A stretch of 64,000 bases of DNA from an uncultured Candidatus Saccharibacteria bacterium (GCA_964407105.1 CAYOUG010000004.1:6936-70935); one strand, 5' to 3'; shown: positions 8,284 to 26,848, counted from the first letter of the stretch. Numbers and translations: made by a program. Notes: generated by a model from the letters alone, not told the origin.

Positions 8284-11200
8284 TTAGATTTCTGGCTCAA
8301 CCGGAGAAGAATTTTCTGGGGCTGATTCACCCTCAGGTTGTACTTGATCAACAGAAGAAGAATCGTTTGGTGGATTTACATCAGCATCAGCACTAGCATC
8401 TCCAGAAATTTCATCTCCGCCAGTTTGGGCTTGTGTCTGTGGGGGTTGCACTTCGCTAGTAGGCACCTCAACATTATTATTTTGACCACACTCACCAGCG
8501 ACAGAAAGCATTTTTCCATTAGACATCTTCAAACAATAAGGTTCGCCTGTAACCTCATCATAAAGTGTAATTCCTGTTGGCTTTTCACTACTTCCCACTG
8601 TAAATGTTTCTACTATCACATTTTTAAATTGAGCAACATCTTGTGCAATATTTACACCAAAATTTTTCAAATAATTCATTATCGCAACAATCAAAGATTC
8701 TGAATTTACAATTCCAGTAGAGGTTGCAGAGCTTGTTGCGGTAGTAGATGCAACACCAAGCTGATTTTCCAAAGCGGTGACTCGCATTTCTAGATTATCA
8801 AACTTATGTTGAAGTGCTTTTACGCCACCAAGCGTAAACACCGCGAGCTTATATGCATCTATATCTTTACCACCAACAGAAAGAATTTCACTTGGTGCTT
8901 CATCAGCAACAATTCCAAGTCGAAGTGGCGCCGACTCATCTTCATTTTTGTATCGATAAGTTGAAATTGTTGTACCTTTTATTTTATCAAGATACGTATC
9001 TAGATCAGTCTCAGTAAGTGATGTCACTGAATCAAGTTTGTTGCGATCACCAAATACTGAAAATCCGTAGCCAGCAACATCACCTGACACCGTAAGCTTG
9101 AACGAAGGACTTGTAGTACCAATACCTACGTTACCAAACGTGTCTTGTACCAACATATTTCCATAGTAGTAGGTTGGCTCAACTTTCATCATCACTGTTT
9201 TTGTGTAAAGTTTTGAATTTTCATCATATGATTGAATAGCTCGACCAATTACAGGACCAGAGGCTGTTGCTTTCATGGCCACACCAGAAATAGATGAGGA
9301 AGTGAGATAATCTCCTGGTTTAATATCTCCATTTTCAAGAGAGATAAGTACTGGCACACGTCCGGACATTGCTACGTTCACAGTATGTTCATTTGTTTCT
9401 CCAAGATTTTGTACACTTGTCATACCCACCACACCAAAAACATTTGCGTCATAAATTTTATTACTCAAACGCACACGTGAGGTGTCTTTTTCGTGGAAAG
9501 CAACCACCGAGCCCTCAACAAATTGAGTTGGATCTCCCACTAAATATGGCGCGGTAATAGCAGCCGCAGAAACAGAATTATAATTTTTAATATCATCTTC
9601 ACTAAGTGACGCCACACCACCCACTTCTTCAGATTGAGCAATCATTGGTGTAGAAAGAGATCCTGGTGGATCATCCATCCAAAAACGAATAAGAGAAACA
9701 AGTAGACTTGGATTTGCGTTGGCTGTAACACTAGCACCAGCAAAATTTGCAACGAGTGTTATTGGCTGAAGTGTCGCCGAAGGAATGGTTGTATTGTGTA
9801 CCGCCACCACAGCACCATTTATCAAATATGTTGCTGAGGTAGTAGAAAGTTCAATACGCATTTTTAGAAAATTTGTGGTCGAAGTCGCTACGTTTGTATT
9901 AGTAAATGTTTCTCCACTTCTATTTTTAGTAACCATTATCCAATTTGGCCCAGAGGTTGCTGTAAAAAATGCGCCCTGTGTTGGTACGGTTCCTGTATCA
10001 GCACCAAAAGCGGCGTCTGTAAGACCTACAACATAAAGAGGTGTGGTAGTAGCTGTCGCAGTACGTGTAGCTTGTACCCATGCTTCAAATATTGGACTTG
10101 ATGTTGCAGAACTAGTAAAAACCGCTGTGCGAAGTGCGCTTCCGTCTCCAACGGTTGGATTTGTTGCGCCGGCTTGCAATTGAATAGCGGGAGGGTATGT
10201 GTTCCTTGTTAAAATCGCGGTGCCGTCTGTATCTAAGTCGAAAGCAAAATCTCCACAGGCACCAGCAGCATCAGAAGACCAAGCACCTCCTCCAGAACCA
10301 CCCACATCGCAAGAAAGATATCGCCACGTTGTATATACACGACCAGCTACAGTAAGCTGATCTCGAAGTCCACCAGCACCCCACGTGGTTGTTGTACCGA
10401 TAGCTACACGAGCATAATCTAGAAGACCTGTGGTTGTGGAAGTTACATAAAAGAGTGGTTGCTGTCCTCCGTTATTCCAATCACTTGTGGTCGCCACTAT
10501 AAAAGACGGGAGAATACTGTCCGTTCCACCACCCACCACAGAAAGTTTTGCATATGCTGATGTGGTGCCGATTCCAAAATTTCCAACAGAACTTAATGTT
10601 GCTTTTGTTGCATTATTTACTCTAAATCCCATCGATTTTCCTGATGGTGTATTAAATATTGTTCCTTCACCAGCATCCCACAAAAATGAATAACTATTCG
10701 TGTCTGGTGCAACCGTGTTTGCTCCAAACCATATTCCGGGATATGTGGTGTCTCCCACGATATTTCCCAACAAAACCCCCCTTCCAGCTCCAGCGTTAGA
10801 AAATCCAGCAACCAAATTACCAGCAACGTCTAATTTTTGTACTGGTGAGCTAGTACCAATTCCTACATTTCCAATATTATTTACCAAAAAATATGTTGAT
10901 GTGGCGTTTGAAACAGATGATGATGCGATTGCAAATAAAGGAATTTGAGATGAAGCGTTTACGCTTGTTATGGAAAGTTTTGCATATGGTGTAGTTGTAC
11001 CGATTCCAACAAGTCCAGTAGAAGTGATGCGCATACGTTCATTTGATGAAAGTGTGCCAGCTGTATGGAAAATAATATTTGCATTGCCTGTGGTAGACGC
11101 AGTACCAATGGCAAGATTGCTATCTGAACTATAAAGATAGGCATCATTTGCGCCGGTGATAGAAAACGCTGCTTGATTGTATGTAGAACTATTGATACCA

Positions 11201-14200
11201 AGATCTACATAATATTTTGTATCTGAACCCAAATCATTTGTTGCTATCCAGTCAGAAGAAGCTGCACTTCCTGAACTTGAATTTTGAATATTTGCTTGAA
11301 GATATCCATCTGTAGATGAGCCAATATTTAACATTGCGCCAGGAAACAATGATCCTGATCCGATAATTGTCTGTGAAAGATACGAAGTACTCGACGCATA
11401 TATTCCTGCCTTTGCCCACAGTGCTGTGGTGGTAGCTGAGGTATTTACTCCGTAGTTTGTAAGTGGTGTGAATGGGAAAGCACCTCCTGATGCAGTAATA
11501 GCTCCACAGGTTACTACCCCTGATGAATCGGTAGTAAGTGCACTTGATCCACTACAACCAGAGATACCTGAAATATTGAGTGCTGTGGTGGAAGCTGTGC
11601 CTGAGACGGTGATTGCGGTGGTTGAAGCGTATGGGAAGGTGGAGGCAGAGCTTGAGGTAGAGGTAATAGCACCACCAACAAAAAGAGTACTTGAGATGTA
11701 ACCCGCACCGTGTACTGAAAAAAGTTTCCCAGGTGTACTTGTAGCGACTCCCACATTTCCAAAAGCCGAAACACTATTATGACCAAGAACTACATTTCCA
11801 TTAGCGTTTCCTTGACCCGCATAAATAAAGACACTACCACCAGAAGCCTGAGCTTCTGTATCACTACCAGCCCCAATAAACACATCTCCTCCTTGAGTAG
11901 TTACAGTGTCCGCACCCAAAATAGAAAGTCGCCCACCTCCAGCAGTATCAAAACCGATTGTTCTGTTTGTGGCGGCCGATGTAAAATACAAATCACCATT
12001 TACTTCAAGTCTTGCGTTTGGACTCAATGTACCAACCCCAATAAATCCACTTGAATTCCATATTCCAGAACCTGGGAAGTAGGCTGTACCAGAAACAGAA
12101 AGTGCGGTAGTGGTTGCATTTGTTGTGGTTGAGTTATCAAAGATTGCGTTTGCAAAATATGAGGTTGATGATGCAAATATCCCAGACTGTGCCCACAGTG
12201 CTGTGGTGGTAGCTGAGGTATTTACTCCGTAGTTTGTAAGTGGTGTGAATGGGAAAGCTCCTCCTCCACCCACAATAGCTCCACAGGCTACTACTCCTGA
12301 TGCGTTGGTAGTAAGTGCGTTTGATCCACTACAACCCGAGATACCTGAAATATTGAGTGCTGTGGTAGAAGCTGTACCTGTGACAGTGATTGCGGTAGTT
12401 GAAGCGTATGGGAAGGTGGAGGCAGAGCTTGAAGTAGAGGTGATGGTGCCGCCGACAAAGAGAGTACTTGAGATGTAACCCGCGCCCTGAACAGCAAATT
12501 TTGTGCTTGGGGTTGCAGTAGCCACTCCAACATTTCCAAAAATATCAACGATAAATTGTGTCGAGGTTGCAATACCTGTTGAAGAAGAGGCTACTACAAA
12601 TTGTGGTATGAGACTGTTGTGAGAACTAACGGAAAGTTTTGCCCATGGAGTACTTGTACCAACACCAACTCTTCCTCCAGTATCAGCAATAATTACATTT
12701 CCATCGTAAGCAGGAACCCCTCCACTTGAAGCACCACCACGTATGTATATGTTCCCGCCACTTGTTGATCCGCCCACATCTTCATTTCCAGCAGCACCCG
12801 CCGCCAACAAAAGATGACTTCCTGCAACATCAGATGCACTTTGTCCAATAAATATTCTTCTTGTAGCAATTGAAGCTATACCTGGAAAAGAGATATCGCC
12901 AGCAACCAAAAGCTGAGGTAAACCGCTTGGATTTAGATCAGAATTTGATGTAGTAAATCTTTGGTAAGAACCAATTTGTACATACTGATTGTATACAGCG
13001 AGAACATCTCTATCTGATGATGTTGCTACAGTGAGTAGTTTCAAGCCGGGTTCATTATTTCCAAATCCAGTTATTGTTGAACCTACGATAGCAAGTTTCG
13101 CCTTTGCCGAGGTGGTACCTATATAAAGACCTGTTGCAAATGTACTTGTGGCAGAAAAATTCGCAGCCACAAATTGTGAAGTACTCGACGCAAATATTCC
13201 AGACTGTGCCCACAGTGCTGTGGTGGTAGCTGAGGTATTTACTCCGTAGTTTGTAAGTGGTGTGAATGGGAAAGCTCCTCCTCCACCCACAATAGCTCCA
13301 CAGGCTACTACTCCTGATGCGTTGGTAGTAAGTGCACTTGATCCACTACATCCTGAGATACCTGAAATATTGAGTGCAGTGGTGGAAGCTGTGCCTGAGA
13401 CGGTGATTGCTGTGGTTGAAGCGTATGGAAATACTGAAGCTGTTGATGTAGTAGCGGTGAAGTATGCGGATACGGTCTCTCCCACCACAGAAAGTTTTGC
13501 GTATGGTGAGGTGGTGCCGACTCCGACATTGCCGCCATTCAAAACTATTTTTCCATTAGCACCAGCAGAAGCGTTTGCGCCAGATGTGCCCGCAGTAATA
13601 TAAACACTACCTCCCGCACCACCAGTATCTGGACCGCCACTACCAGCTCCGCCATTACCTGCAGTAAGAGTTAAATCTCCACCAACACCCGCTGGACCAC
13701 CTGATCCACCAGCACCACCAGTACCTGTGGTTATGGTTATAGCACCACCCGCTCCACCAGCACCACCTGCTCCAGTTCCAGTTCCACCAGTTCCAGCAAA
13801 AAGAAGCATTTTGCCACCGACACCAGCCGTTGCTCCAGATCCACCCGTTCCACCAAGAACTGAAAACACTGTTGATGCACTAATACCAGAAGATTGATCG
13901 TTTCCTTTTACTGAAAACTTAGCAAATGGCGAACTTGTTCCCACTCCTACATTTCCAATAACATCAACAATAAAATCTGTTGTTGTTGCAAATACACCAG
14001 CAGTAGAAGAAGCAATTACAAATTGTGGTTGTGTTCCTCCGTTTGAACTAACAGAAAGTTTTGCCCATGGAGTAGTTGATGATACACCGATATTTCCAGT
14101 AGAGGTTACTCTTAAATATTCATTGCCTCCAGTAGAAAATCCAACAACATCAGCACTAGGAGAAAATACTCCAGTATTAGTATCACCACTAAATGAAAGA

Positions 14201-15777
14201 CCTGGGGTAGCGGCATTACCAGCACCAGCAATACCTAGAGTTTGAGTAGTATTAATTCTAGCTGTACCAGCAATCCAAAATTGTGTTGAAGCATTAACTA
14301 CACCGTCAGCTCGCCAATAATCGTTGGTGTTATTAAACATGAAATAATCTGTCGCTCCAGAAATTGCAGACGCCGCAAGATTTATACCATATACCGCCGC
14401 AGCACCAAGATTTGAAATATTAAGTCCTGCAAGACCAAGTCCTCCTCCGTCTATAGTAAGTCGTGAACTAGAACCGCTTGAAGCTCCGGGTGTTGATGTA
14501 CCAATACCAATAGATCCATTAAACGAAGATGTCGCGGTAGATGTACCGACAAAAGTTTCTCCTACCACCTGTCCCGCCACAGAAAGTTTTGCATAAGGTG
14601 AGGTGGTGCCGATTCCCACACTTCCAGTAGATGTCCATATTCCAGAACCTGGGAAATAAGCAGTACCAGAAACAGAAAGTGCGGTAGTGGTTGCATTTGT
14701 TGTGGTTGAGTTATCAAAGATTGCGTTTGCAAAATATGAGGTTGATGATGCAAATATCCCAGACTGTGCCCACAGTGCTGTGGTGGTAGCTGAGGTATTT
14801 ACTCCGTAGTTTGTAAGTGGTGTGAATGGGAAAGCTCCTCCTCCACCCACAATAGCTCCACAGGCTACTACTCCTGATGCGTTGGTAGTAAGTGCGTTTG
14901 ATCCACTACAACCCGAGATACCTGAAATATTGAGTGCTGTGGTAGAAGCTGTACCTGTGACAGTGATTGCGGTAGTTGAAGCGTATGGGAAGGTGGAGGC
15001 AGTAGATGTGGTAGCGGTGAAGTATGCGGATACTGTTTGACCAACAACAGAAAGTTTTGCATAAGGTGAGGTGGTGCCGATTCCTACATTTCCTCCACTT
15101 TTTAATGTAAGTACCGATGCAGAACTTGGACCAATAAAGTTTGCAATGTCACCCGCTCCGTTTTGTGTAATCGTCAAAAATGTTGATGCAGTATTTGTAG
15201 CGTTTGTTGCATCAGCGCGCAAAAATTGCTCGCTTGAAAGACCATCTAAGGTATCTGCAACAAACGCTGCCGGCACAGCACCAAGTTTTTTTCGAGGTGT
15301 CATTTCCCCATCCCAAACCGCACCACCACCAGATCCTCCCACCTCAACCCCGAGGTAAAGCGTTTGATTGAAATCTACACTCGTCAGCGGTGTAGAGCTT
15401 CCAAGCATAACACTGAAAAGACCGTTGGTAAGGGTGATACGATCACCTGCCGCAGTACTCCTGTCTTCATCCCAAATACTCGCTCCACCTGTTGCAACAG
15501 TGTAGAGCTTAAATCTCATGTGATACGTGCCATCAGCGACAGCAACATTGCTTGAATTAGTAAGCTTTCCCTGATAATTAATTTCTTTATTAAATGCAGC
15601 GTTTGCACTTTTTGTTTGGCCTAGAAACAAAAGTTGCGGCGATAAAAGAGATACGAGTACAACAAACACAACAGCTGTTGTATATACGCGTAGAAAACGA
15701 CGTGTGCATGCAAAAGCCGTCGTGCGCATTGTGACCGCATTTCTTATATCTATGATGTTTTTAATAAGCGTACGCAT
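8284..15777 (-). CDS. Giant secreted fibre/adhesin-like protein (2497 aa). Repetitive Gly/Thr/Ser-rich tail-fibre-like beta-helical repeats, Gly-rich block, C-terminal Peptidase_S74 intramolecular chaperone domain plus acidic C-terminal extension
   Basis: N-terminal signal/TM (VVFVVLVSLLSPQLLFLGQ). At least 10 copies of G(I/V)GT(T/S)SP(Y/W/F)AKLSV(V/S)G-type repeats. Four copies of a roughly 130-aa module (SAYFTATTSTAS...CSGS...ACGAIVGGGGAFPFTPLTNYGVNTSATTTALWAQSGIFASSTS). Near the C-terminus ...FGDRNKLDSVTSLTETDLDTYLDKIKGTTISTYRYKNEDESAPLRLGIVADEAPSEIL...YKLAVFTLGGVKALQHKFDNLEMRVTALENQL matches the endosialidase-chaperone (S74) domain consensus (SDRRLKenI...l..v.Y.yk......r.GfIAqEv..v.Pe.v........y.l...i.A.kel....eeLe). 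Confidence 0.85.
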   Translation of the reverse strand: MRTLIKNIIDIRNAVTMRTTAFACTRRFLRVYTTAVVFVVLVSLLSPQLLFLGQTKSANAAFNKEINYQGKLTNSSNVAVADGTYHMRFKLYTVATGGASIWDEDRSTAAGDRITLTNGLFSVMLGSSTPLTSVDFNQTLYLGVEVGGSGGGAVWDGEMTPRKKLGAVPAAFVADTLDGLSSEQFLRADATNATNTASTFLTITQNGAGDIANFIGPSSASVLTLKSGGNVGIGTTSPYAKLSVVGQTVSAYFTATTSTASTFPYASTTAITVTGTASTTALNISGISGCSGSNALTTNASGVVACGAIVGGGGAFPFTPLTNYGVNTSATTTALWAQSGIFASSTSYFANAIFDNSTTTNATTTALSVSGTAYFPGSGIWTSTGSVGIGTTSPYAKLSVAGQVVGETFVGTSTATSSFNGSIGIGTSTPGASSGSSSRLTIDGGGLGLAGLNISNLGAAAVYGINLAASAISGATDYFMFNNTNDYWRADGVVNASTQFWIAGTARINTTQTLGIAGAGNAATPGLSFSGDTNTGVFSPSADVVGFSTGGNEYLRVTSTGNIGVSSTTPWAKLSVSSNGGTQPQFVIASSTAGVFATTTDFIVDVIGNVGVGTSSPFAKFSVKGNDQSSGISASTVFSVLGGTGGSGATAGVGGKMLLFAGTGGTGTGAGGAGGAGGAITITTGTGGAGGSGGPAGVGGDLTLTAGNGGAGSGGPDTGGAGGSVYITAGTSGANASAGANGKIVLNGGNVGVGTTSPYAKLSVVGETVSAYFTATTSTASVFPYASTTAITVSGTASTTALNISGISGCSGSSALTTNASGVVACGAIVGGGGAFPFTPLTNYGVNTSATTTALWAQSGIFASSTSQFVAANFSATSTFATGLYIGTTSAKAKLAIVGSTITGFGNNEPGLKLLTVATSSDRDVLAVYNQYVQIGSYQRFTTSNSDLNPSGLPQLLVAGDISFPGIASIATRRIFIGQSASDVAGSHLLLAAGAAGNEDVGGSTSGGNIYIRGGASSGGVPAYDGNVIIADTGGRVGVGTSTPWAKLSVSSHNSLIPQFVVASSSTGIATSTQFIVDIFGNVGVATATPSTKFAVQGAGYISSTLFVGGTITSTSSSASTFPYASTTAITVTGTASTTALNISGISGCSGSNALTTNASGVVACGAIVGGGGAFPFTPLTNYGVNTSATTTALWAQSGIFASSTSYFANAIFDNSTTTNATTTALSVSGTAYFPGSGIWNSSGFIGVGTLSPNARLEVNGDLYFTSAATNRTIGFDTAGGGRLSILGADTVTTQGGDVFIGAGSDTEAQASGGSVFIYAGQGNANGNVVLGHNSVSAFGNVGVATSTPGKLFSVHGAGYISSTLFVGGAITSTSSSASTFPYASTTAITVSGTASTTALNISGISGCSGSSALTTDSSGVVTCGAITASGGAFPFTPLTNYGVNTSATTTALWAKAGIYASSTSYLSQTIIGSGSLFPGAMLNIGSSTDGYLQANIQNSSSGSAASSDWIATNDLGSDTKYYVDLGINSSTYNQAAFSITGANDAYLYSSDSNLAIGTASTTGNANIIFHTAGTLSSNERMRITSTGLVGIGTTTPYAKLSITSVNASSQIPLFAIASSSVSNATSTYFLVNNIGNVGIGTSSPVQKLDVAGNLVAGFSNAGAGRGVLLGNIVGDTTYPGIWFGANTVAPDTNSYSFLWDAGEGTIFNTPSGKSMGFRVNNATKATLSSVGNFGIGTTSAYAKLSVVGGGTDSILPSFIVATTSDWNNGGQQPLFYVTSTTTGLLDYARVAIGTTTTWGAGGLRDQLTVAGRVYTTWRYLSCDVGGSGGGAWSSDAAGACGDFAFDLDTDGTAILTRNTYPPAIQLQAGATNPTVGDGSALRTAVFTSSATSSPIFEAWVQATRTATATTTPLYVVGLTDAAFGADTGTVPTQGAFFTATSGPNWIMVTKNRSGETFTNTNVATSTTNFLKMRIELSTTSATYLINGAVVAVHNTTIPSATLQPITLVANFAGASVTANANPSLLVSLIRFWMDDPPGSLSTPMIAQSEEVGGVASLSEDDIKNYNSVSAAAITAPYLVGDPTQFVEGSVVAFHEKDTSRVRLSNKIYDANVFGVVGMTSVQNLGETNEHTVNVAMSGRVPVLISLENGDIKPGDYLTSSSISGVAMKATASGPVIGRAIQSYDENSKLYTKTVMMKVEPTYYYGNMLVQDTFGNVGIGTTSPSFKLTVSGDVAGYGFSVFGDRNKLDSVTSLTETDLDTYLDKIKGTTISTYRYKNEDESAPLRLGIVADEAPSEILSVGGKDIDAYKLAVFTLGGVKALQHKFDNLEMRVTALENQLGVASTTATSSATSTGIVNSESLIVAIMNYLKNFGVNIAQDVAQFKNVIVETFTVGSSEKPTGITLYDEVTGEPYCLKMSNGKMLSVAGECGQNNNVEVPTSEVQPPQTQAQTGGDEISGDASADADVNPPNDSSSVDQVQPEGESAPENSSPVEPEI
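11377..11706. repeat. Intragenic DNA repeat copy 1 (most divergent) inside the giant fibre gene
   Basis: Shares tgcccacagtgctgtggtggtagctgaggtatttactccgtagtttgtaagtggtgtgaatgggaaagc... through ...gagtacttgagatgtaacccgc with the copy at 12058-12486. The antisense ORF 11468-11701 translates nearly identically to the ORFs at 12245, 13262 and 14822. Confidence 0.75.
12058..12486. repeat. Intragenic DNA repeat copy 2 (about 430 bp), near-identical to copy 4
   Basis: 12058-12426 is essentially identical to 14635-15003 (about 369 bp), and then continues like copy 1. Confidence 0.8.
13166..13436. repeat. Intragenic DNA repeat copy 3
   Basis: agactgtgcccacagtgctgtggtggtagctgaggtatttactccgtagtttgtaagtggtgtgaatgggaaagctcctcctccacccacaatagctccacaggctactactcctgatgcgttggtagtaagtgc... 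is shared with copies 2 and 4. Confidence 0.8.
14635..15003. repeat. Intragenic DNA repeat copy 4, near-identical to copy 2
   Basis: See copy 2. The identity runs from ccatattccagaacctggg... through ...gcgtatgggaaggtggaggcag. Confidence 0.8.
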
Positions 15778-15780
15778 TAA

Positions 15781-17349
15781 TTATTTTTTGAGAAGCGCTC
15801 GGACAAATTTATATCCGAGAAAAAGCAACACAAAGATAAGTATTAGAACAAGAAGAACAGGAATATTTTCTGAAACAAGAACAAACAAACCGTGAAGTGA
15901 TAAATCTGTATTTGATGCAACATTTGGCATCAAAGACACGATCACACCTGCAAGTTTTTTTAATCCTTGATTTTTGTAATCAAGAATCGTTACACCAAAC
16001 TCAAACTTTCCTGAACGACCAAGCGGTGCAATGAGTGCCTCATAAGCTGTTTTCTCTTTATTTACTCGAAGCAAAAACGAAAATGTTTTAGAGTGATCTT
16101 CTGGGTCTCGCATTGTTACCGTAATCGTCTTTAGAATTTCTGGAACTTTTTTGTAATCAAGAGAAATTGTAAGTTCTCGATCTCCTTCTATTTCAACTGA
16201 GTGAGAAGTAACAGAAAGTTTTTTACCATTTTGAAAGAAATCTAAATCAAGCACCGTGAGTCCCGCAATCATTGGATGAACTTTTGATTGAGGTAACTCT
16301 TGTATTTCTCCAAAAAGATCTTCTGAATCATGTGGCTCGCCTATTTTATAGAGTCGGCCTTTTGTAACCGCTCCAGATGAATAGTTACCAAACTCATCGC
16401 GAGCAAAAACTGTGTAGTAATAAACTTTTCCATACTCCACATCTGTGTCTACTAGAAATTCAGCATTTCCTTCATAAACCACTTTTCCATCAAACAAATC
16501 TTTTGGATAAAATTTGTCAGATCGCACTACACGTACAGATTCAAAATCCACAAGAGGATTTTTCCAAGAGAGTGTGATTTTTTTATCATCACCCACCGCT
16601 TTTAAATTTGTAACGTTACTCGGCGGATTTGTATCAGGTAATGATGTAGTTACAAATTGTTGATTGTCTATCACAAGTTTTCGTCCATATGCATCAATAA
16701 GCTCGATTCTGAAATAATATGTCGTACCCGGTGTAAGACTTTCTATACTAATAGAGTGATTTGTGAGAAAGAGCTGTTCGGCAAGAGTACCGATCTCATA
16801 ATCTGGAGTTTCTCCCCACGACACAATCGCTTGTGTGTAGATGTTTGTCTCAAAATTTATGACAGAACTTGTAACGTCTGGTTGCACCGACATGCCAAGC
16901 AATTTAAGCAACAAAGTTCCCGATATGTTTCCATCACTGGTTGTTGGTGGTGGAACTGAGGCTTCAAGTGTTGTCGCAGTAGCGGTTGCTGATGTTGGTG
17001 AATAGTTGAACGATGAATCAAATGCGGTCACTGTATAGTCGTATGTTGTTTCCGGAGAAAGACCAGTATTTGAATATGTCGTTGCGGTAGATGTTGCAAT
17101 AAACACTAGATCACGAAAGACTTGATATCCTGCAACACCATAATTATCTGTTGATGCAGTCCATGAAAGATTTATCTGCGAACTCGATACTGCAGTAGCT
17201 GTAAGATTTGTGGGAGTAGATGGGGCGACACCGTCAACGACCGTTATTGATTGCTCTACTTGAAACGTATCTTCTGCCGCTTGTATAGATAGCACCGCAC
17301 CACAAAGTGTGACGGTGAAAACCATAAAAATGTATAGAAGTTTTTTCAT
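15781..17349 (-). CDS. Cell-surface protein with fibronectin type III domains, N-terminal signal peptide and C-terminal TM anchor
   Basis: 522 aa. Signal peptide (MKKLLYIFMVFTVTLCGAVLSIQA). FN3 hallmark motifs (NLTATAVSSSQINLSWTASTDNYGVAGYQVFRD; KKITLSWKNPLVDFESVRVVRSDKFYP...YYYTVFARDEFGN). C-terminal hydrophobic anchor IPVLLVLILIFVLLFLGYKFVRALLKK. The stop lies 3 nt from the giant gene start. Confidence 0.7.
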   Translation of the reverse strand: MKKLLYIFMVFTVTLCGAVLSIQAAEDTFQVEQSITVVDGVAPSTPTNLTATAVSSSQINLSWTASTDNYGVAGYQVFRDLVFIATSTATTYSNTGLSPETTYDYTVTAFDSSFNYSPTSATATATTLEASVPPPTTSDGNISGTLLLKLLGMSVQPDVTSSVINFETNIYTQAIVSWGETPDYEIGTLAEQLFLTNHSISIESLTPGTTYYFRIELIDAYGRKLVIDNQQFVTTSLPDTNPPSNVTNLKAVGDDKKITLSWKNPLVDFESVRVVRSDKFYPKDLFDGKVVYEGNAEFLVDTDVEYGKVYYYTVFARDEFGNYSSGAVTKGRLYKIGEPHDSEDLFGEIQELPQSKVHPMIAGLTVLDLDFFQNGKKLSVTSHSVEIEGDRELTISLDYKKVPEILKTITVTMRDPEDHSKTFSFLLRVNKEKTAYEALIAPLGRSGKFEFGVTILDYKNQGLKKLAGVIVSLMPNVASNTDLSLHGLFVLVSENIPVLLVLILIFVLLFLGYKFVRALLKK

Positions 17350-17355
17350 TACGTT

Positions 17356-18120
17356 TTAAAGGGGTAGTGCAGTAACTGTTGTTGTGGCTAGATATACTCC
17401 TTCTGGTTGAAGATGTGCAGTGCCAGATTGAGCACGAAATTTTAGTGTTGTAGCGGTACCTGATGGATGATTTGGAGAAGTACTTCTACTTATTACTTCA
17501 TTCGCAGTTGAGAGATTGTACCAACACGCATCTGCTGTATCGGTTGTGTCAACATTGCATGTGTTAGATCCATTGTCTTTAAACTTTTGAACAATGTGTG
17601 AACCTTCAGGTGTAAAAGCAAATTCTGATGCAGAAGCAGCGATTGAAAAGGTGAAATCTGGATTTGCACCAGCTGGTGTATAATCCGCAAAACTATTTGC
17701 ACCACTCACAAGCGCTGGTGAAGAACTTGCTTTGATACTAAGTTCATAACCAGAAGGACTGTCGGTAATAACCGTCACAACCGCGGATCCATTTGAAGTA
17801 CCGCCGGTCACACCACCAATATTTGGACTCATAACCACATCAGAAACAGAAGTAATTGCGATATACACTTCTTGCATCTGTTGATACCCTGCTTTTATTT
17901 TGTAGAGTGTGCCTGAAGATTCGCCAGTAGCTACTTCTCCAGCAGTACTTTCTTGCGTATAACTTGTAGAAGTAGAAAGTCCTCCTCCAAAATTAACGCT
18001 GTCGCTTTGAATTTTGTATAACGTACCGGTCATTTGAGCAAAAGAAACATTGCCAAATGTTGATACCACATACAAAGAAACTGAAACAAATAAAGCTGTA
18101 TACAGATAAGCCTTAAACAT
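17356..18120 (-). CDS. Secreted Ser/Thr-rich protein, paralog A of 19104-19808
   Basis: 254 aa with signal peptide. Shares with 19104-19808 the motifs VTGGTS.G, GY...IKASSSPA, KFKDNGSNTCN, two conserved Cys (..NTCN... ..CW..LST) and a T/A-rich C-terminus (TATATLTAVT / ATTTVTALPL). Confidence 0.55.
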   Translation of the reverse strand: MFKAYLYTALFVSVSLYVVSTFGNVSFAQMTGTLYKIQSDSVNFGGGLSTSTSYTQESTAGEVATGESSGTLYKIKAGYQQMQEVYIAITSVSDVVMSPNIGGVTGGTSNGSAVVTVITDSPSGYELSIKASSSPALVSGANSFADYTPAGANPDFTFSIAASASEFAFTPEGSHIVQKFKDNGSNTCNVDTTDTADACWYNLSTANEVISRSTSPNHPSGTATTLKFRAQSGTAHLQPEGVYLATTTVTALPL

Positions 18121-18122
18121 GA

Positions 18123-19094
18123 TTATGATTTCTTTCGAATTTCAAACCGAGTAACAATAAATCGAATTACAAAGAGCAAGATTATAATGATCACACACGC
18201 AAGAACGAGAAGTTTTATTGGAATTACCCAAAAAGTAAATTCCATTGTGTCTACAATGTTGTCATAACCCCTATTTATAGAAGCTACGGCCGTGTATTTT
18301 CCGAGAAGAAAACCACTATTCCATTGCACCTCTCGAAGTCTCAGCGAGTCAGGCATCGCAAACCAAGGAGCCACTTCTACATTTCCAATTTCCTTTCCAA
18401 GAATATTTTTTATACTGATTTCTCCATAAGGATTTTCGTGCACACTTCCTTTGTTTTCATAAAGAAGTTCAAACTGCACTGGACCAGCACCATAAATTTT
18501 CTTTGTATTTTTTGTTTGGAATTGTGTAAGTTTTCCTTCTTGTTTTACCTCACCCGGTACTCGAATAAAAAACAATGTTCCTATGCGAGTAACTATTGCA
18601 CTTGATGGACCTTTGGCGCCCGTTGGTTTTGAAGCGGTACTTACAAGAACACTTCCATACAAACCACCCGGCTGTGCATCTGCTGGAACAAACACAGTCA
18701 CAGGAATAATTGCTCTCTGTGCGTGCATGAGTTCAAAACTTTTTTCTGGAAAAGAAATATAATCTTTTAGAGAATATGGACCGTGATCTTCACCAAGAAG
18801 AACAACTGTATCTGAGGTATTTTTAGAACCACTAAAATCTTCGGTATCAAGATAAAAGATACGAGTATCTCCCATTCTGTTACTTACTGAAATATTTACT
18901 GTTTTACTTTCTCCGGGTTTTATTTCAAGTTCCTGTTTTCCAGGACCAACCACGAAGTCACTTCGCACAATATCGTCAGGAAGCGCTTCTATCGTGTAAG
19001 AAAAAACTTTAGAAAAAGGAAAAAGAGACACTAAACAAAAAAACATAATGACACCAACCTTCCAGGATATGTAATTTTTTTCTGTAGACGTCAT
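18123..19094 (-). CDS. Surface protein with N-terminal signal peptide, beta-rich ectodomain and C-terminal TM anchor
   Basis: 323 aa. Hydrophobic N-terminal segment, ectodomain beginning YTIEALPDDIVRSDFVVGPGKQELEIKPGESKTVNISVSN, C-terminal TM LLVLACVIIIILLFVIRFIV followed by basic residues. Flanked by the two paralogous secreted proteins. Confidence 0.5.
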   Translation of the reverse strand: MTSTEKNYISWKVGVIMFFCLVSLFPFSKVFSYTIEALPDDIVRSDFVVGPGKQELEIKPGESKTVNISVSNRMGDTRIFYLDTEDFSGSKNTSDTVVLLGEDHGPYSLKDYISFPEKSFELMHAQRAIIPVTVFVPADAQPGGLYGSVLVSTASKPTGAKGPSSAIVTRIGTLFFIRVPGEVKQEGKLTQFQTKNTKKIYGAGPVQFELLYENKGSVHENPYGEISIKNILGKEIGNVEVAPWFAMPDSLRLREVQWNSGFLLGKYTAVASINRGYDNIVDTMEFTFWVIPIKLLVLACVIIIILLFVIRFIVTRFEIRKKS

Positions 19095-19103
19095 ACGGTT
19101 AAT

Positions 19104-19808
19104 TTAGTTTGTAACTGCTGTGAGGGTGGCTGTAGCTGTGTATGTGTCTTGAGCAAGACCTGAATTTGAACCAACAGAAACTCTAAAATAAACACTTGAT
19201 GTCGAACCAGATGCTGTTGTTTCGCTAGAAGATACTATGGTTGATGTTGCCGAAGTAGAAAGACCCATCCAACATGATCCAGATCCACCAGTATCGGCCG
19301 ATCCCGTATTGCATGTATTTGAACCATTATCTTTAAACTTTGTTGCAAGTTCTGCTGTAGTACTTGCAGAAACACTAAAACCAAATTTATGTGTACCCGC
19401 ACCCGCTGCTGAATAAGCATAATCAGGAACACCAGTAACCGCAGGAGAATAATCTGATATTGATCCACCTTGAGAATCTGCTTGCATTGCGGGCGAACTA
19501 CTTGCTTTTATTGTCATGGTATAACCAGCAGCATTGTTGGTTGTAACAATTGCTGTTGTTGTACCGTATGACGTACCTCCAGTAACACCGGCAATAGAAC
19601 CGTTCATTGTGACGTTGTTTGCTCCGGTTAAGAAAGCAATTTCTGAGGTGATTGATTGAGTAACTGTAAATTGATCTTCAACCGCTCGACTTAGTGTGGG
19701 TTCAATAACCACAAAAGCCAACGCAAGTGTAAGAGTCAAAAAGAAACTCGCTGCAATCGCCTGTCTTACATTTATTTTTTTAATCATAATTTTTAATTTA
19801 ACTTTCAA
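19104..19808 (-). CDS. Secreted Ser/Thr-rich protein, paralog B of 17356-18120
   Basis: 234 aa. Signal peptide (start possibly at an internal Met, MIKKINV...). Homology to 17356-18120 through the IKASSSPA / KFKDNGSNTCN / CW.GLST motifs. Confidence 0.55.
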   Translation of the reverse strand: MKVKLKIMIKKINVRQAIAASFFLTLTLALAFVVIEPTLSRAVEDQFTVTQSITSEIAFLTGANNVTMNGSIAGVTGGTSYGTTTAIVTTNNAAGYTMTIKASSSPAMQADSQGGSISDYSPAVTGVPDYAYSAAGAGTHKFGFSVSASTTAELATKFKDNGSNTCNTGSADTGGSGSCWMGLSTSATSTIVSSSETTASGSTSSVYFRVSVGSNSGLAQDTYTATATLTAVTN

Positions 19809-19836
19809 ACTTTAATAATATTTCGACCTTTACAGA

Positions 19837-19889
19837 CTTACGTCTGTTCTCGAGGCTCGCTTACTACAAGCGCCGAGAACAGACGTAAG
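19837..19889. other. GC-rich perfect 16-bp inverted repeat (stem-loop) between two minus-strand genes
   Basis: cttacgtctgttctcg (19837-19852) and cgagaacagacgtaag (19874-19889) around a 21-nt loop. Followed on the plus strand by tatttatttttt. Unusually GC-rich for this window. Confidence 0.5.
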
Positions 19890-19899
19890 TATTTATTTT

Positions 19900-20799
19900 T
19901 TAATCATCAACCGGTACAAGAACATATAAATATTCTTGATCATTTGTATTTTTAAATATTGGTTTTATCACACCAGAAGAACCTGTTTCGTCTGGTACGA
20001 CCTGTGTTTGATCAGAAAATGAATTCTTAATTCTCTGTTTTACTTTTTCATTTTTAAATTCATCTCCTGTACCTGGCACCACAATCATTCCCGTCTTTGA
20101 ATCTTGCGATACAGAATTTCGATGGTTTATATCATCACGCACAACCACTGTTTTATTTATATTCATACGCAACAAAGATGAAATAAATCTGTATGAATTT
20201 AAAGCGATTGAATCAAATTTGTTACGCAACGAATGCGTAAGATCACGAACACTAATCTGGATATTATTTACATTTGAAACACTTGCGGAATCTCGCACAA
20301 GTGCAAGTGTTTTAGATGTTTTAGAAACAAAAGAAGTTATAAATATTTTTTCTGAAGAAATAAAATGTTCTGAAACAACAGCAATATTTGTTTGATATTG
20401 TTTGTTGTTTGAACCATAAGCAAAAAAAGCTATTGCAGAAATTACAATAAACAAAAGGGCATAAAACATTCCTGAATGTGAAAGAAAAGAAAATACTTCA
20501 GAGGGAGCAAATTCTTTTTTGTTCGTTTTTAGGTTTTCTGACGCTTTAAAAACCGAAGCATTTTGTGACACAACACTGACTGGAGGAAATACGATTGTTC
20601 CACGAATTTTTTCAGATGCATCTTTTTGGTGTTCGATGATCGAATCTTCGCTCACAAACCAACCCCTTCCCACCTGTCGGCACTCAAGTTTGCCAGATCG
20701 ACAAAGTTGACCGATATAATCCGAATTATAGCCAGATATTTCTGAACCTCGTTTTGCCGAGATATATTTTTTTCCGTTGAAATAGAGCTCGCTATTCAT
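19900..20799 (-). CDS. Membrane-anchored protein with N-terminal excisionase/MerR-like HTH, single TM and extracytoplasmic C-terminal domain
   Basis: 299 aa. The N-terminal about 60 aa (KKYISAKRGSEISGYNSDYIGQLCRSGKLECRQVGRGWFVSEDSI) has the HTH_17/Xis-MerR pattern (helix...G.L...R.G...W.v.e..i). TM segment MFYALLFIVISAIAFFAYG. Ser/Asn-rich C-terminal domain. Confidence 0.45.
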   Translation of the reverse strand: MNSELYFNGKKYISAKRGSEISGYNSDYIGQLCRSGKLECRQVGRGWFVSEDSIIEHQKDASEKIRGTIVFPPVSVVSQNASVFKASENLKTNKKEFAPSEVFSFLSHSGMFYALLFIVISAIAFFAYGSNNKQYQTNIAVVSEHFISSEKIFITSFVSKTSKTLALVRDSASVSNVNNIQISVRDLTHSLRNKFDSIALNSYRFISSLLRMNINKTVVVRDDINHRNSVSQDSKTGMIVVPGTGDEFKNEKVKQRIKNSFSDQTQVVPDETGSSGVIKPIFKNTNDQEYLYVLVPVDD

Positions 20800-21133
20800 T
20801 GGTAATATTATAGCTTTTTGAGTCGCATAAAAGAACGATTTTTTTGTGGATAACTAAGGTTTTTTTAAGATTATTTTTTTATTCAAAAAAGATCAAAAAT
20901 ATTTATAAAAATATGTAGATATAACAACAAATGATCTATTTTTTATTACCAAAAAATTCTATAAACAAAATTTGGTTGGTAAATAAACAAAAAAATTACG
21001 TTAGAATAAATTAATACAAAAAAAGTCACTTTATAAAAATATAAGTTATCAACATATACAAACCTTGATAAATAGAAGTAATAAACTTATAATTATTACT
21101 AATGTTTATAAAGGTTTAGTAATGTTATGCACA

Positions 21134-21376
21134 ATGAATAATTCATTCTTAACAATCAAACAAGTATCTAAAATTCTAGGTGTAACACCACTTACACTTA
21201 GAAATTGGGACAACTCTGGTAAGTTTGAAGCTACCCGACACCCCATAAATAACTACAGAGTATACAAGCGTGAAGACGTGGAAGCATTCATTCATAAAAT
21301 GGGCACAAAAAACTCCACAACACGACAAAAGAGAAATCAAGTTAAAAAGCTCAATATACTGCATTTGGATGATTAA
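21134..21376 (+). CDS. Small standalone excisionase/MerR-family HTH DNA-binding protein (about 80 aa)
   Basis: LTIKQVSKILGVTPLTLRNWDNSGKFEATRHPINNYRVYKREDVEAFI is a textbook HTH_17 (excisionase/MerR-type) domain. The tabulated ORF starts at 21065 but MNNSFLTIKQ at 21134 (or MLCTM at 21122) is the more plausible start. Basic C-terminal tail. Confidence 0.6.
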   Translation: MNNSFLTIKQVSKILGVTPLTLRNWDNSGKFEATRHPINNYRVYKREDVEAFIHKMGTKNSTTRQKRNQVKKLNILHLDD

Positions 21377-21420
21377 AAATTTATAACTATTTGTAATCTG
21401 AAGAAACAAAATTAACCATT

Positions 21421-21455
21421 AAAAAATCACTTCAGAAAACGAAGTGATTTTTTAA
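21421..21455. terminator. Bidirectional intrinsic terminator between the HTH gene and gatB
   Basis: aaaaaatcacttc-agaaaac-gaagtgatttttt; 12-bp stem flanked by A-run and T-run. Serves the + strand HTH gene and the minus strand gatB (stop at 21474). Confidence 0.65.
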
Positions 21456-21473
21456 TGGTTAATTAATTTATTT

Positions 21474-25900: not shown

Positions 25901-26440
25901 TTAAACAATACTAGAAAGACGATATGTTTTTCGTGCCGCCAAACACACTGCTACAATACACGCAAAAAGTGTTAAAGACATCATTGGAATAGTAATGTAA
26001 CCGAATTCAAGCACAAATATTTTTGAACATGCTCCACCAAATGAGGTGCATGGAGTAAAAGAATGCCCACCAAGCTGTGTAAAAGAATGATAAAGTGCGA
26101 CAGCTCCACCAAAAAGCGACAAAATATAAATATAAGGCAAAATATGTCTTTCTCTACGCCACAAAGCAAGACCCAACAAAGCTACCTGTGGATACAAAAA
26201 CAATCTTTGAACCCAACACAAAACACAAGGCTCAAAACCAATCGCTTCTGAATACACCAAACTTCCCACCAAGCCAGCTAAAGATAAAAAAAATGCAACA
26301 CTAATAGCTCTTTCCCCCACCCATCTCACGATCCTGTCATTTAGTGTCGCACGAACGGAAAGAGCAACGACAAACAAAACGAGTAGTATCTGTAAAAAAA
26401 GTGTGGACCAAACAAAAACTGAAGTTATTAATTCTGACAT
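25901..26440 (-). CDS. Disulfide bond formation protein B (DsbB/BdbC family)
   Basis: 179 aa, 4 TM. First-loop motif EPCVLCWVQRLFLYPQ matches BdbC (PCxLCWYQRIxMYP), with a second Cys pair in the distal loop (PCTSFGGAC). Confidence 0.78.
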   Translation of the reverse strand: MSELITSVFVWSTLFLQILLVLFVVALSVRATLNDRIVRWVGERAISVAFFLSLAGLVGSLVYSEAIGFEPCVLCWVQRLFLYPQVALLGLALWRRERHILPYIYILSLFGGAVALYHSFTQLGGHSFTPCTSFGGACSKIFVLEFGYITIPMMSLTLFACIVAVCLAARKTYRLSSIV

Positions 26441-26452
26441 TTTTATAATAAA

Positions 26453-26848
26453 TTATTTTGGTAACTCACATTGAGTGATGCTCGACAATTCTGCAAGTGG
26501 CAATACACCCTCTTTTCTTGTACCGTCAGAAAATTCCCACGTTGGATATGTTTTTATGTTTTTATCCTTGCATACTTGTAATTGAGATTGACCATCTGGT
26601 GTAGAACATTCTGTGTAAGGAAGCGTTGACTGTGATTTACCAAACAAAGCTTTTTGCTCCCTACAATGTGGACACCAAAACGCACCGTAAAACACTGTCC
26701 CTTTATCCTTTAAACACTGAGCAAATTGATCAAATTCCCCTGATTTTCCTGGGGTTTTTATCAAAAAAATTGAAAAGCCTATAAGCAATAACACCACCAA
26801 AATCGTGATAATTGTTCCCTTATGTTTCATATGCGCCCAGTATATCAC
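26453..26848 (-). CDS. Membrane-anchored thioredoxin-fold thiol-disulfide oxidoreductase (DsbA/BdbA-like partner)
   Basis: 131 aa. N-terminal TM anchor then FYGAFWCPHCREQK (CxxC thioredoxin active site). Gene overlaps the DedA gene end and lies adjacent to the DsbB homolog. Confidence 0.72.
   Translation of the reverse strand: MIYWAHMKHKGTIITILVVLLLIGFSIFLIKTPGKSGEFDQFAQCLKDKGTVFYGAFWCPHCREQKALFGKSQSTLPYTECSTPDGQSQLQVCKDKNIKTYPTWEFSDGTRKEGVLPLAELSSITQCELPK

Follow-up and report, generated by a model that had tools for sequence, protein, structure and literature searches.

The 64,000-nucleotide stretch of DNA analysed here, which we refer to as the window, comes from an uncultured Candidatus Saccharibacteria bacterium (GCA_964407105.1 CAYOUG010000004.1:6936-70935) and carries on its minus strand five co-directional open reading frames (ORFs). 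In the order of transcription these encode a 299-aa protein, a small secreted protein that we call B, a 323-aa chaperone-like protein, a second small secreted protein that we call A, and a 522-aa FN3-repeat protein; a giant gene for a 2497-aa fibre-like protein follows on the same strand (Table 1). The original prediction for this locus described an operon-like run of five genes, all encoding signal-peptide proteins, all separated by 3-10 nt and possibly acting as accessories of the fibre gene. The five ORFs are indeed all present, and spacing is as close as described for giant/FN3, FN3/A, A/323-aa and 323-aa/B (3, 6, 2 and 9 nt, respectively), but not for B and the 299-aa gene, which are separated by a spacer of 91-112 nt with a 24-bp hairpin inside. 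Similarly, signal peptides are found in the products of the four downstream genes but not at the N terminus of the 299-aa protein. Because it encodes no signal peptide and sits beyond a strong hairpin, this fifth gene (19900-20799) is outside the unit. The ORF predicted for B at 19104-19808 exists, but its start needed correction: the gene call on an identical contig begins at the ATG at 19787 (227 aa), which is most likely the genuine start, rather than at the TTG at 19808 (234 aa). The core therefore consists of four minus-strand genes at 15781-19787—B, the 323-aa chaperone, A and the FN3 protein—and no further copies of any of them, including A/B-type genes, are present in the window. We conclude with high confidence that this four-gene cassette is a conserved surface-assembly module, in which a pair of proteins with a pilin fold is combined with a tethered chaperone of WxLIP/PapD-like type and an FN3 anchor.

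The cassette is conserved as a unit. A scan of one genome per GTDB species for relatives of the chaperone yielded 226 loci, and the set analysed consists of the best 80 of these and three others (83 loci). The cassette is found in 74/83, with all four genes in about 70/83, and essentially every locus that no contig end interrupts has B, chaperone, A and FN3 in this order on a single strand. B is always the first gene and the FN3 protein always the last, and the median intergenic gaps along this order are 16, 3 and -1 nt. Going by record titles, the named relatives are mostly Paceibacteria/Parcubacteria (Kaiserbacteria, Zambryskibacteria, Taylorbacteria and Nomurabacteria); the generic "Saccharibacteria" title of many TPA assemblies we regard as unreliable. 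With more than 1500 homologs for each protein and the gene order kept, the locus is far beyond chance, and the same two observations, homolog number and strict synteny, rule out chance or non-coding ORFs. Some cassettes depart from the common form: L012 and L083 are variants, and a few appear to have no separately detectable B or A gene.

Table 1. Features of the cassette and its immediate flanks (window coordinates).
Feature	Position	Strand	Basis
Giant fibre-like protein, 2497 aa, with a weak Peptidase_S74 domain; begins 3 nt past the FN3 gene	8284..15777	-	
FN3-repeat protein, 522 aa; signal peptide, N-terminal strand, C-terminal transmembrane (TM) helix; proposed terminator and membrane anchor, PamR-like	15781..17349	-	
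C-terminal TM helix of the FN3 anchor, followed by RALLKK	15802..15858	-	
Mature N-terminal strand of the FN3 anchor, AEDTFQVEQSITV; mimics the B strand	17239..17277	-	
A: PamT-like secreted pilin, 254 aa; N-terminal extension and pilin-type beta-sandwich core; proposed tip/adhesin-carrying subunit	17356..18120	-	
N-terminal extension of A, residues 30-85; apparently three units of ~19 aa, each with x-Y-x-[IL] at its start	17866..18033	-	
Chaperone-like protein, 323 aa, DUF916/WxLIP family; signal peptide, two beta-sandwich domains, C-terminal TM helix	18123..19094	-	
C-terminal TM helix of the chaperone, followed by the basic tail EIRKKS	18147..18218	-	AlphaFold2 model and hydrophobicity
Chaperone domain 1, long beta-hairpin (residues 143-179), GGLYGSVLVST...SAIVTRIGTLFFIRV; may supply a complementing strand, G1-like	18558..18668	-	
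B: small secreted single-domain pilin, 227 aa; proposed rod subunit	19104..19787	-	
Strand at the mature N terminus of B, VEDQFTVTQSIT; donor-strand candidate	19647..19682	-	
Perfect hairpin of 24 bp, past the stop of the 299-aa gene and ahead of the B start; 5' cassette boundary	19836..19890	-	
299-aa protein; weak HTH_17-like N terminus, internal TM segment at ~102-127	19900..20799	-	

The 323-aa protein, correctly predicted to combine a signal sequence with a C-terminal TM segment, belongs to a large Patescibacteria family (1546 matches at E<=1e-3). The Pfam model PF06030 (WxLIP_PGBD, that is DUF916) is found in 49/50 sampled members, with a best value of 1.8e-7, the window protein itself scoring 20.1 bits, under the gathering score of 27.3. 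Searched against the PDB, the family profile matches the solved WxLIP1 of Enterococcus faecium (9i1y/9i25; E=2.6e-8). In an AlphaFold2 model (predicted local distance difference test, pLDDT, 89.7), an N-terminal signal helix is followed by a pair of beta-sandwich domains, with the TM helix at residues 293-316, and this predicted two-domain fold also matches the chaperones of chaperone-usher systems. At the level of sequence, Pfam detects neither PapD_N nor PapD_C in this protein, nor DUF3324, and no chaperone-usher protein is found in PDB profile searches. Conservation within the family is highest in the long domain-1 hairpin (...SAIVTRIGTLFF...), which has G143, G147, R170 and F176 as invariant residues, G172, L174 and F175 as nearly invariant ones, and a fall in pLDDT at its tip. 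In the profile alignment this hairpin aligns with that of WxLIP1. AlphaFold2 has been reported to put the WxLIP hairpin strand in the gap of the WxL beta-sandwich, completing the sandwich (PMC10599100). The domain-1 hairpin of the 323-aa protein may thus complement its subunits as a G1 strand does.

A and B are paralogs, as originally proposed. They are 41% identical over 155 aa by BLASTP (E=8e-22), and their families align by hhalign over 178 columns (probability 100, E=2.8e-58). The motifs that had been singled out—IKASSSPA, KFKDNGSNTCN and CW..LST, together with two cysteines—are present in both and conserved across the A/B family. The invariant Cys pair, C188 and C199 in A and also found in B, suggests a stabilising disulfide. 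(About 6 kb upstream of the cassette, a DsbB-like membrane protein of 179 aa at 25901-26440 (-), whose syntenic gene in L002 is annotated PF02600 DsbB, adjoins a 131-aa thioredoxin-fold protein with a CPHC motif at 26453-26848 (-); a connection of this pair to the cysteines of the cassette is speculative.) Both A and B end directly past a conserved C-terminal strand, Y.AT.TLTA in B, which also has a signal-like hydrophobic segment and keeps a steady length of ~220-260 aa across loci. The A family counts 1662 matches, and a separate search of a library of 1.84 billion cluster representatives gives 1451 at E<=1e-3. A itself matches the NCBIfam model NF058579, named "CPR-type pilus protein PamT" (CPR, candidate phyla radiation), with 26.6 bits and E=3.4e-6, and 48/49 sampled members of the family match it too (best 9e-14), all far under the 240-bit equivalog cutoff. 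Judged by these profile scores, the A family is remotely homologous to PamT and not an equivalog. Families can therefore be named for both A (PamT) and the 323-aa protein (DUF916/WxLIP), where the original prediction had found none assignable.

Structure prediction gives A a pilin fold. In the AlphaFold2 model, the core at residues 85-254 is confident (pLDDT >90), and its best structural matches are pilins assembled by donor-strand exchange (CsuA/B, Fim and Pap); TasA, archaeal AbpA and the Pyrodictium cannulae are weaker matches, and a Foldseek search gives the same pilin enrichment with weak E-values. This likeness to fimbrial pilins is structural only, no Fimbrial Pfam family being matched by A or B. 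The N-terminal extension that precedes the core, with pLDDT <50 at residues 43-77, is the most conserved part of the family, with ~20 nearly invariant positions in residues 35-82. It looks like a series of repeat units, YKIQSDSVNFGGG / YTQESTAGEVATG / YKIKAGYQQMQ, and it is here that the PamT model matches (residues 11-133); B has no counterpart of these ~55 residues. The predicted resemblance of the locus to WxL/DUF916-type surface loci holds for one partner and fails for the others: DUF916 is present in the 323-aa family, but the WxL domain PF13731 has no match at E<=10 in 49 members of the A/B family, in which there is a single CW..LST motif only and no dual W-x-L motif. We also considered A and B directly as WxL-domain proteins, and rejected this at the sequence level (0/49 with PF13731); structure searches of the PDB returned no WxL chain. 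One further observation on the A family concerns its gene models. Among its best 150 representatives, 15 are single ORFs (P0243-P0245, P0250, P0251, P0255 and others) in which a DUF916 chaperone, TM helix included, runs into an A-type signal peptide and body. They are either read-through of the 2-3-nt junction or real fusions and, since gene-calling read-through is possible, we do not count them as evidence.

The FN3 protein, predicted to have a C-terminal TM anchor, does have one (residues 498-516), and it matches Pfam fn3 (9e-14). In its family, fn3 is found in 42/43 members and the FN3-like Pur_ac_phosph_N in 25/43, and the family profile matches FN3 structures in the PDB; the protein comprises about three FN3-like domains and a further conserved domain. 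Some relatives are enlarged, to 1240 aa in L066 and 1569 aa in L077. What ties this protein to B is its mature N terminus. Across 74 B-family proteins, the strand at the N terminus of B keeps the form D.FTVTQTIT.EISF, with an alternating F-x-V-x-Q-x-I pattern that resembles a donor strand, and the anchor has D-x-F at the same position, ahead of its first FN3 domain. Within a genome the two strands are alike, and between genomes they change together: the pairs (B and anchor, respectively) are VEDQFTVTQSIT and AEDTFQVEQSIT in the window, IEDQFTVKQTIT and AEDQFTVKQLIG in L005, IEDQFIVSQTIT and AEDQFIVSQLID in L013, and IEDQFTVSVSVT and SESTFEVSVTVT in L029. With similarity defined as the best ungapped 10-mer score between two N termini, the same-locus mean for B and anchor over 57 loci is 26.26, as against 21.08 +/- 0.59 when partners are permuted, with 0/5000 permutations reaching the same-locus mean; column-wise identity is 5.88/11 within loci versus 4.37. 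The control pairs, A with anchor, A with B and the C terminus of B with anchor, have no same-locus excess. The simplest reading of strands that are both similar and co-varying is one shared acceptor groove, and these N-terminal sequences suggest that B and the anchor fit the same one.

These observations lead us to the interpretation that 15781-19787 is a self-contained four-gene operon whose products most likely form a thin fibre on the cell surface, put together by donor-strand exchange with the help of a chaperone and without an usher, as a minimal relative of the recently described Pam pilus; we put the probability of this reading at about 0.68. In the mechanism that we envisage, Sec would export all four products, and the DUF916/WxLIP-type protein, tethered by its C-terminal helix, would cap A and B as they emerge, its domain-1 hairpin supplying the strand that their beta-sandwich is missing. 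A, which is PamT-like and bears lectins on its extension in relatives, would be the distal, adhesin-type subunit. B would polymerise under A, each copy placing its N-terminal strand D-x-F-x-V-x-Q-x-I-T into the groove of the previously assembled subunit. Growth would end when the FN3 protein inserts its mimic of the B strand into the last B, and the same protein would tie the fibre to the membrane through its FN3-type stalk and C-terminal TM helix, and the length of the fibre would depend on the B:anchor ratio. We hold with moderate confidence that the product is a donor-strand-exchange fibre in which B forms the rod and A the tip, and which the FN3 protein terminates.

The roles proposed for the two pilins draw on the domains found in their relatives. 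Additional sequence at the N terminus is present in 28 of the best 150 A-family representatives, and at least 12 of these 28 carry a ConA-like lectin domain (Laminin_G_3), sometimes together with DUF2341 or FN3 repeats, in proteins of up to 2187 aa. The A extension is kept internally in these lectin-fused relatives, in one of which the lectin (LamG) domain is inserted within it, and extended A proteins also occur inside cassettes, in L014 (426 aa) and L058 (617 aa). Added domains are found on A-type modules only and never on B-type ones, as would be expected of a subunit at the end of a fibre more than of one repeated along it. FimH and PapG, the tip adhesins of chaperone-usher pili, likewise combine a lectin with a pilin domain. 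A is therefore likely to have the tip role, given the lectin-like domains of its relatives, and B the role of rod, and adhesion, which the original prediction had offered as one function of the locus, remains plausible. The two roles could conceivably be exchanged, A being the major polymerising pilin with a donor strand in its extension, and B a minor adaptor that joins the A rod to the FN3 anchor. Such an arrangement would explain why the A extension is at once the most conserved part of the family and disordered in the monomer, as is typical of partner-dependent folding, and hhalign does align KAGYQQMQEVY of A with the donor-like strand of B. Yet it leaves lectin/adhesin domains, including the LamG domain inside the extension, on what would be the repeating subunit, and it gives a rod function to the protein that matches the PamT (tip) model. 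Moreover, the N terminus of A co-varies with neither the anchor nor B, and B is the first gene past the hairpin, the usual place of the major pilin in chaperone-usher operons, although this last point is an analogy only. We consider an exchange of roles quite unlikely.

A different question is whether anything elongates. The anchored DUF916 protein might permanently hold A and B in a static WxL-type complex, or anchor, B and A might form a short capped 1:1:1 stack (anchor->B->A) that never grows. In favour of such an arrangement, WxLIP/DUF916 is the sole sequence-level assignment of the 323-aa protein, and one WxLIP with two small paralogs is the commonest WxL layout (PMC10599100). No sequence feature fixes the length of a fibre, and competition of B and anchor for one groove could keep assemblies very short. 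However, A and B lack any WxL signal, and their predicted fold matches that of pilins that polymerise; the A family is homologous to part of an operon whose filaments have been seen by electron cryomicroscopy (Pam preprint); and an FN3/TM protein that copies the B strand is hard to explain if the chaperone is itself the permanent anchor. A complex without elongation is thus unlikely in our estimation, and we favour a filament in which B would be the repeating unit. Several points weigh against the fibre reading as a whole. No filament has been seen for this lineage, and neither the cassette nor the rest of the 64-kb window encodes two-domain major pilins of the PamA/PamB/PamE type. The PamT score of A is far under the NCBIfam equivalog cutoff (26.6 versus 240 bits), and the description of PamT by the Pam authors as having no donor strand suggests no function for the A extension. 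Pam-named NCBIfam models had no match in the chaperone and FN3 families, a result that is uninformative because such models may not exist. Finally, the similarity between the B and anchor strands could stem from gene conversion instead of selection for a shared groove, and the loci behind the strand statistics are phylogenetically non-independent.

The system to which the cassette comes closest is the Pam pilus of Ca. Mycosynbacter amalyticus, from which Troman et al. (2026) determined the structures of two filaments, defining the pam operon as well (bioRxiv 10.64898/2026.03.03.709456). The overall layout of the cassette matches this operon and follows its logic with fewer parts. PamA, PamB and PamE are two-domain pilins (an N-terminal domain that is a beta-sandwich of nine strands, a linker strand, plus a domain at the C terminus) that undergo donor-strand exchange, PamT is a single-domain tip pilin described without a donor strand, and PamC and PamD are chaperones that fold like PapD/FimC and keep a TM helix at the C terminus. 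PamR combines a pair of FN3 domains with a C-terminal TM helix, has one additional strand at its N terminus, and is the proposed pilus terminator/anchor (all from bioRxiv 10.64898/2026.03.03.709456). The same authors find a tail-fibre-like protein and ATP synthase genes in the pam neighbourhood, and Pam pilins mainly in Saccharimonadia and Microgenomatia (bioRxiv 10.64898/2026.03.03.709456). The cassette shares with Pam a monoderm CPR host, Sec-dependent parts and the lack of an usher, and in both there is a tail-fibre-like gene nearby. The incomplete Ig-like, pilin-type fold of the Pam pilins has its counterpart in the pilin-like predicted fold of A, whose family is homologous to PamT, and the PapD-like two-domain architecture with a C-terminal TM helix is common to the chaperones of both. 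Compared by description, PamR and the cassette anchor agree in their FN3 domains, C-terminal TM helix and N-terminal strand. The differences are nonetheless substantial: the cassette has single-domain pilins (227 and 254 aa) in place of the two-domain PamA/B/E, one chaperone instead of two, an anchor with about three FN3-like domains and a further conserved domain instead of two FN3 domains, and relatives in Paceibacteria/Parcubacteria instead of mainly Saccharimonadia and Microgenomatia. No ATP synthase gene is among the window ORFs at 1-34 kb.

WxL clusters combine a WxLIP, made of DUF916, DUF3324 and a TM helix, with small and large WxL proteins (PMC10599100, PMC1534035), and have been defined by at least two WxL-domain proteins (PF13731, dual W-x-L) within four genes of a WxLIP (Hassan, Chaudhuri and Williamson 2023). 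The cassette parallels them in having a WxLIP relative with two Ig-like domains and a C-terminal TM helix, in pairing this anchored protein with two small secreted paralogs, and in the chaperone step that we propose, which corresponds to the published AlphaFold2 prediction of a WxLIP hairpin completing the WxL sandwich. Even the large WxL proteins, with N-terminal binding domains and a C-terminal WxL domain, have a parallel in the lectin-fused relatives of A. Unlike WxL proteins, however, A and B lack a detectable WxL domain, and the dual W-x-L motif is missing from them too; the cassette has no LPXTG partner, and has an FN3/TM anchor with a donor-like strand instead; and WxL clusters have been interpreted as peptidoglycan-bound complexes rather than as fibres. 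With chaperone-usher pili (the archaic Csu and CupE, as well as Fim/Pap) the cassette would share the logic of an N-terminal donor strand, and the LamG-fused A-type proteins parallel their two-domain adhesins of lectin and pilin. Here, in contrast, there is no usher and no outer membrane, none of the four genes encoding a large or barrel-like protein, the chaperone is membrane-tethered instead of soluble, an FN3/TM protein is the proposed terminator instead of a PapH-like pilin, and at the sequence level the cassette resembles neither PapD nor the fimbrial families of Pfam. TasA from Bacillus, archaeal AbpA and the Pyrodictium cannulae are monoderm or archaeal surface fibres that are donor-strand-complemented, as proposed here, but have jelly-roll subunits and neither a dedicated chaperone nor an FN3 anchor. 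We file the cassette as a minimal variant of the CPR Pam-type pilus. It is not a Pam equivalog, because its PamT score is under the cutoff, it has no PamA/B/E-type pilins, and it has one chaperone where Pam has two; not a WxL cluster, because A and B have no WxL domain; and not a chaperone-usher system, because there is no usher and no sequence similarity.

CPR bacteria, or Patescibacteria, are thought to live attached to host cells, yet little is known of the organelles by which they attach. It was not until 2026 that the Pam pilus was described, in one cultured species of Saccharimonadia (bioRxiv 10.64898/2026.03.03.709456). If our interpretation is correct, pili of the Pam type extend to many genomes labelled Parcubacteria/Paceibacteria (226 GTDB species genomes were matched), in a form that is much simpler than Pam, with four genes in about 4 kb, and easy to reconstitute. 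The lectin-fused relatives of A would point to the host-recognition end of the fibre and might serve as markers of host specificity. Two of the ideas put forward here are absent from the searchable literature. One is that an anchor ends a fibre through a co-evolving copy of the rod donor strand. The other is that a DUF916/WxLIP chaperone links CPR pili to the WxL clusters of lactobacilli, enterococci and Listeria: neither WxL nor DUF916 is mentioned in the Pam preprint (bioRxiv 10.64898/2026.03.03.709456), and no paper in the searchable literature ties WxL to donor-strand exchange. This tie, which we draw from profile matches, is thus previously unreported and provisional. More tentatively still, and with doubts on our part, the cassette might represent the simplest usher-less donor-strand-exchange pathway in monoderms, part of an evolutionary continuum that joins CPR Pam pili with the WxL/Csc clusters of Firmicutes. 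If this were true, WxLIP proteins would be pilus-type chaperones, WxL clusters, which have hitherto been regarded as static and wall-bound, would be assembled by donor-strand complementation or exchange, and termination would proceed by "donor-strand mimicry", a membrane anchor copying the strand of the rod.

The giant gene that follows the cassette was central to the original prediction, in which the cassette might be an uncharacterised fibre-accessory module. In its strongest form, this would mean that the four proteins fold, export or anchor the 2497-aa S74-type giant and build no structure of their own. The 3-nt gap makes co-transcription with the giant plausible in the window genome, no terminator-like site is present between the FN3 gene and the giant gene, and a protein resembling a tail fibre is also co-localised with pam operons (Pam preprint). 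Co-occurrence, which the prediction had suggested checking, proves frequent and not obligate: a giant homolog lies within 10 kb of the cassette in 38/83 loci. But of the 43 cassettes flanked on either side by 3 kb or more, only 18 have it directly adjacent, downstream in 15 and upstream in 3, and 13/43 have no large same-strand ORF as a neighbour. The giant also has its own signal sequence and a near-invariant mature N terminus, AFN.(Q/E)INYQGKLT, that does not co-vary with the cassette proteins, which for their part have pilin and chaperone folds of their own. In L001, a 1.08-Mb Patescibacteria contig, the giant S74 gene lies upstream of the cassette, not downstream, and a Y1 (IS200-like) transposase gene (8311-8952 (-)) separates the two. 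Because of its loose association across genomes, its own signal sequence and its non-co-varying N terminus, we treat the giant as a frequent and possibly co-regulated neighbour, not as a client of the cassette. That the cassette serves the giant alone is very improbable, and the accessory role first suggested for it is weakly founded. We also considered a coupling of giant and cassette through a donor strand and dropped it, there being no same-locus excess of the giant N terminus against those of B, anchor and A. The giant gene itself contains four repeats of ~400 nt (11252-11665, 12029-12442, 13046-13459 and 14606-15019) that are 84-95% identical, are spaced 777, 1017 and 1560 nt apart and encode a ...FPYASTTAITVTGTASTTALNISGISGCSGS...GAFPFTPLTNYGVNTSATTTALWA... 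module; they also yield repeated spurious ORFs on the opposite strand (12245, 13262 and 14822).

At the other end of the cassette, the hairpin has a minimum free energy of -38.8 kcal/mol (z=-7.3). Hairpins of -25 kcal/mol or below, differing in sequence, are found upstream of B in 26/71 loci, compared with 3/70 inside the cassette, 6/59 at 3.2 kb upstream and 0/71 in shuffled sequence. The window hairpin has no Rfam match and, since it has no T-tract, does not qualify as an intrinsic terminator of the canonical kind; it may act in termination, as an insulator or as a 5' stabiliser of the pilin mRNA. A search for a sigma-70-like promoter directly upstream of B gave nothing convincing, there being fewer sites than in shuffled sequence. 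Homologs of the 299-aa protein are encoded just upstream of the cassette in 42/83 loci (L002, L004-L021 and others), often as tandem paralog pairs. The C-terminal part of this protein is presumably extracytoplasmic and, to judge from its sequence features, it could be a membrane-tethered regulator. Beyond it, a divergent MerR/HTH_17-type gene of 103 aa (21065-21376 (+)) overlaps the best sigma-70-like site of the region (11/12, 21065-21093), and a 20-bp bidirectional terminator-like palindrome at 21414-21460 is common to this gene and the convergent gatB.

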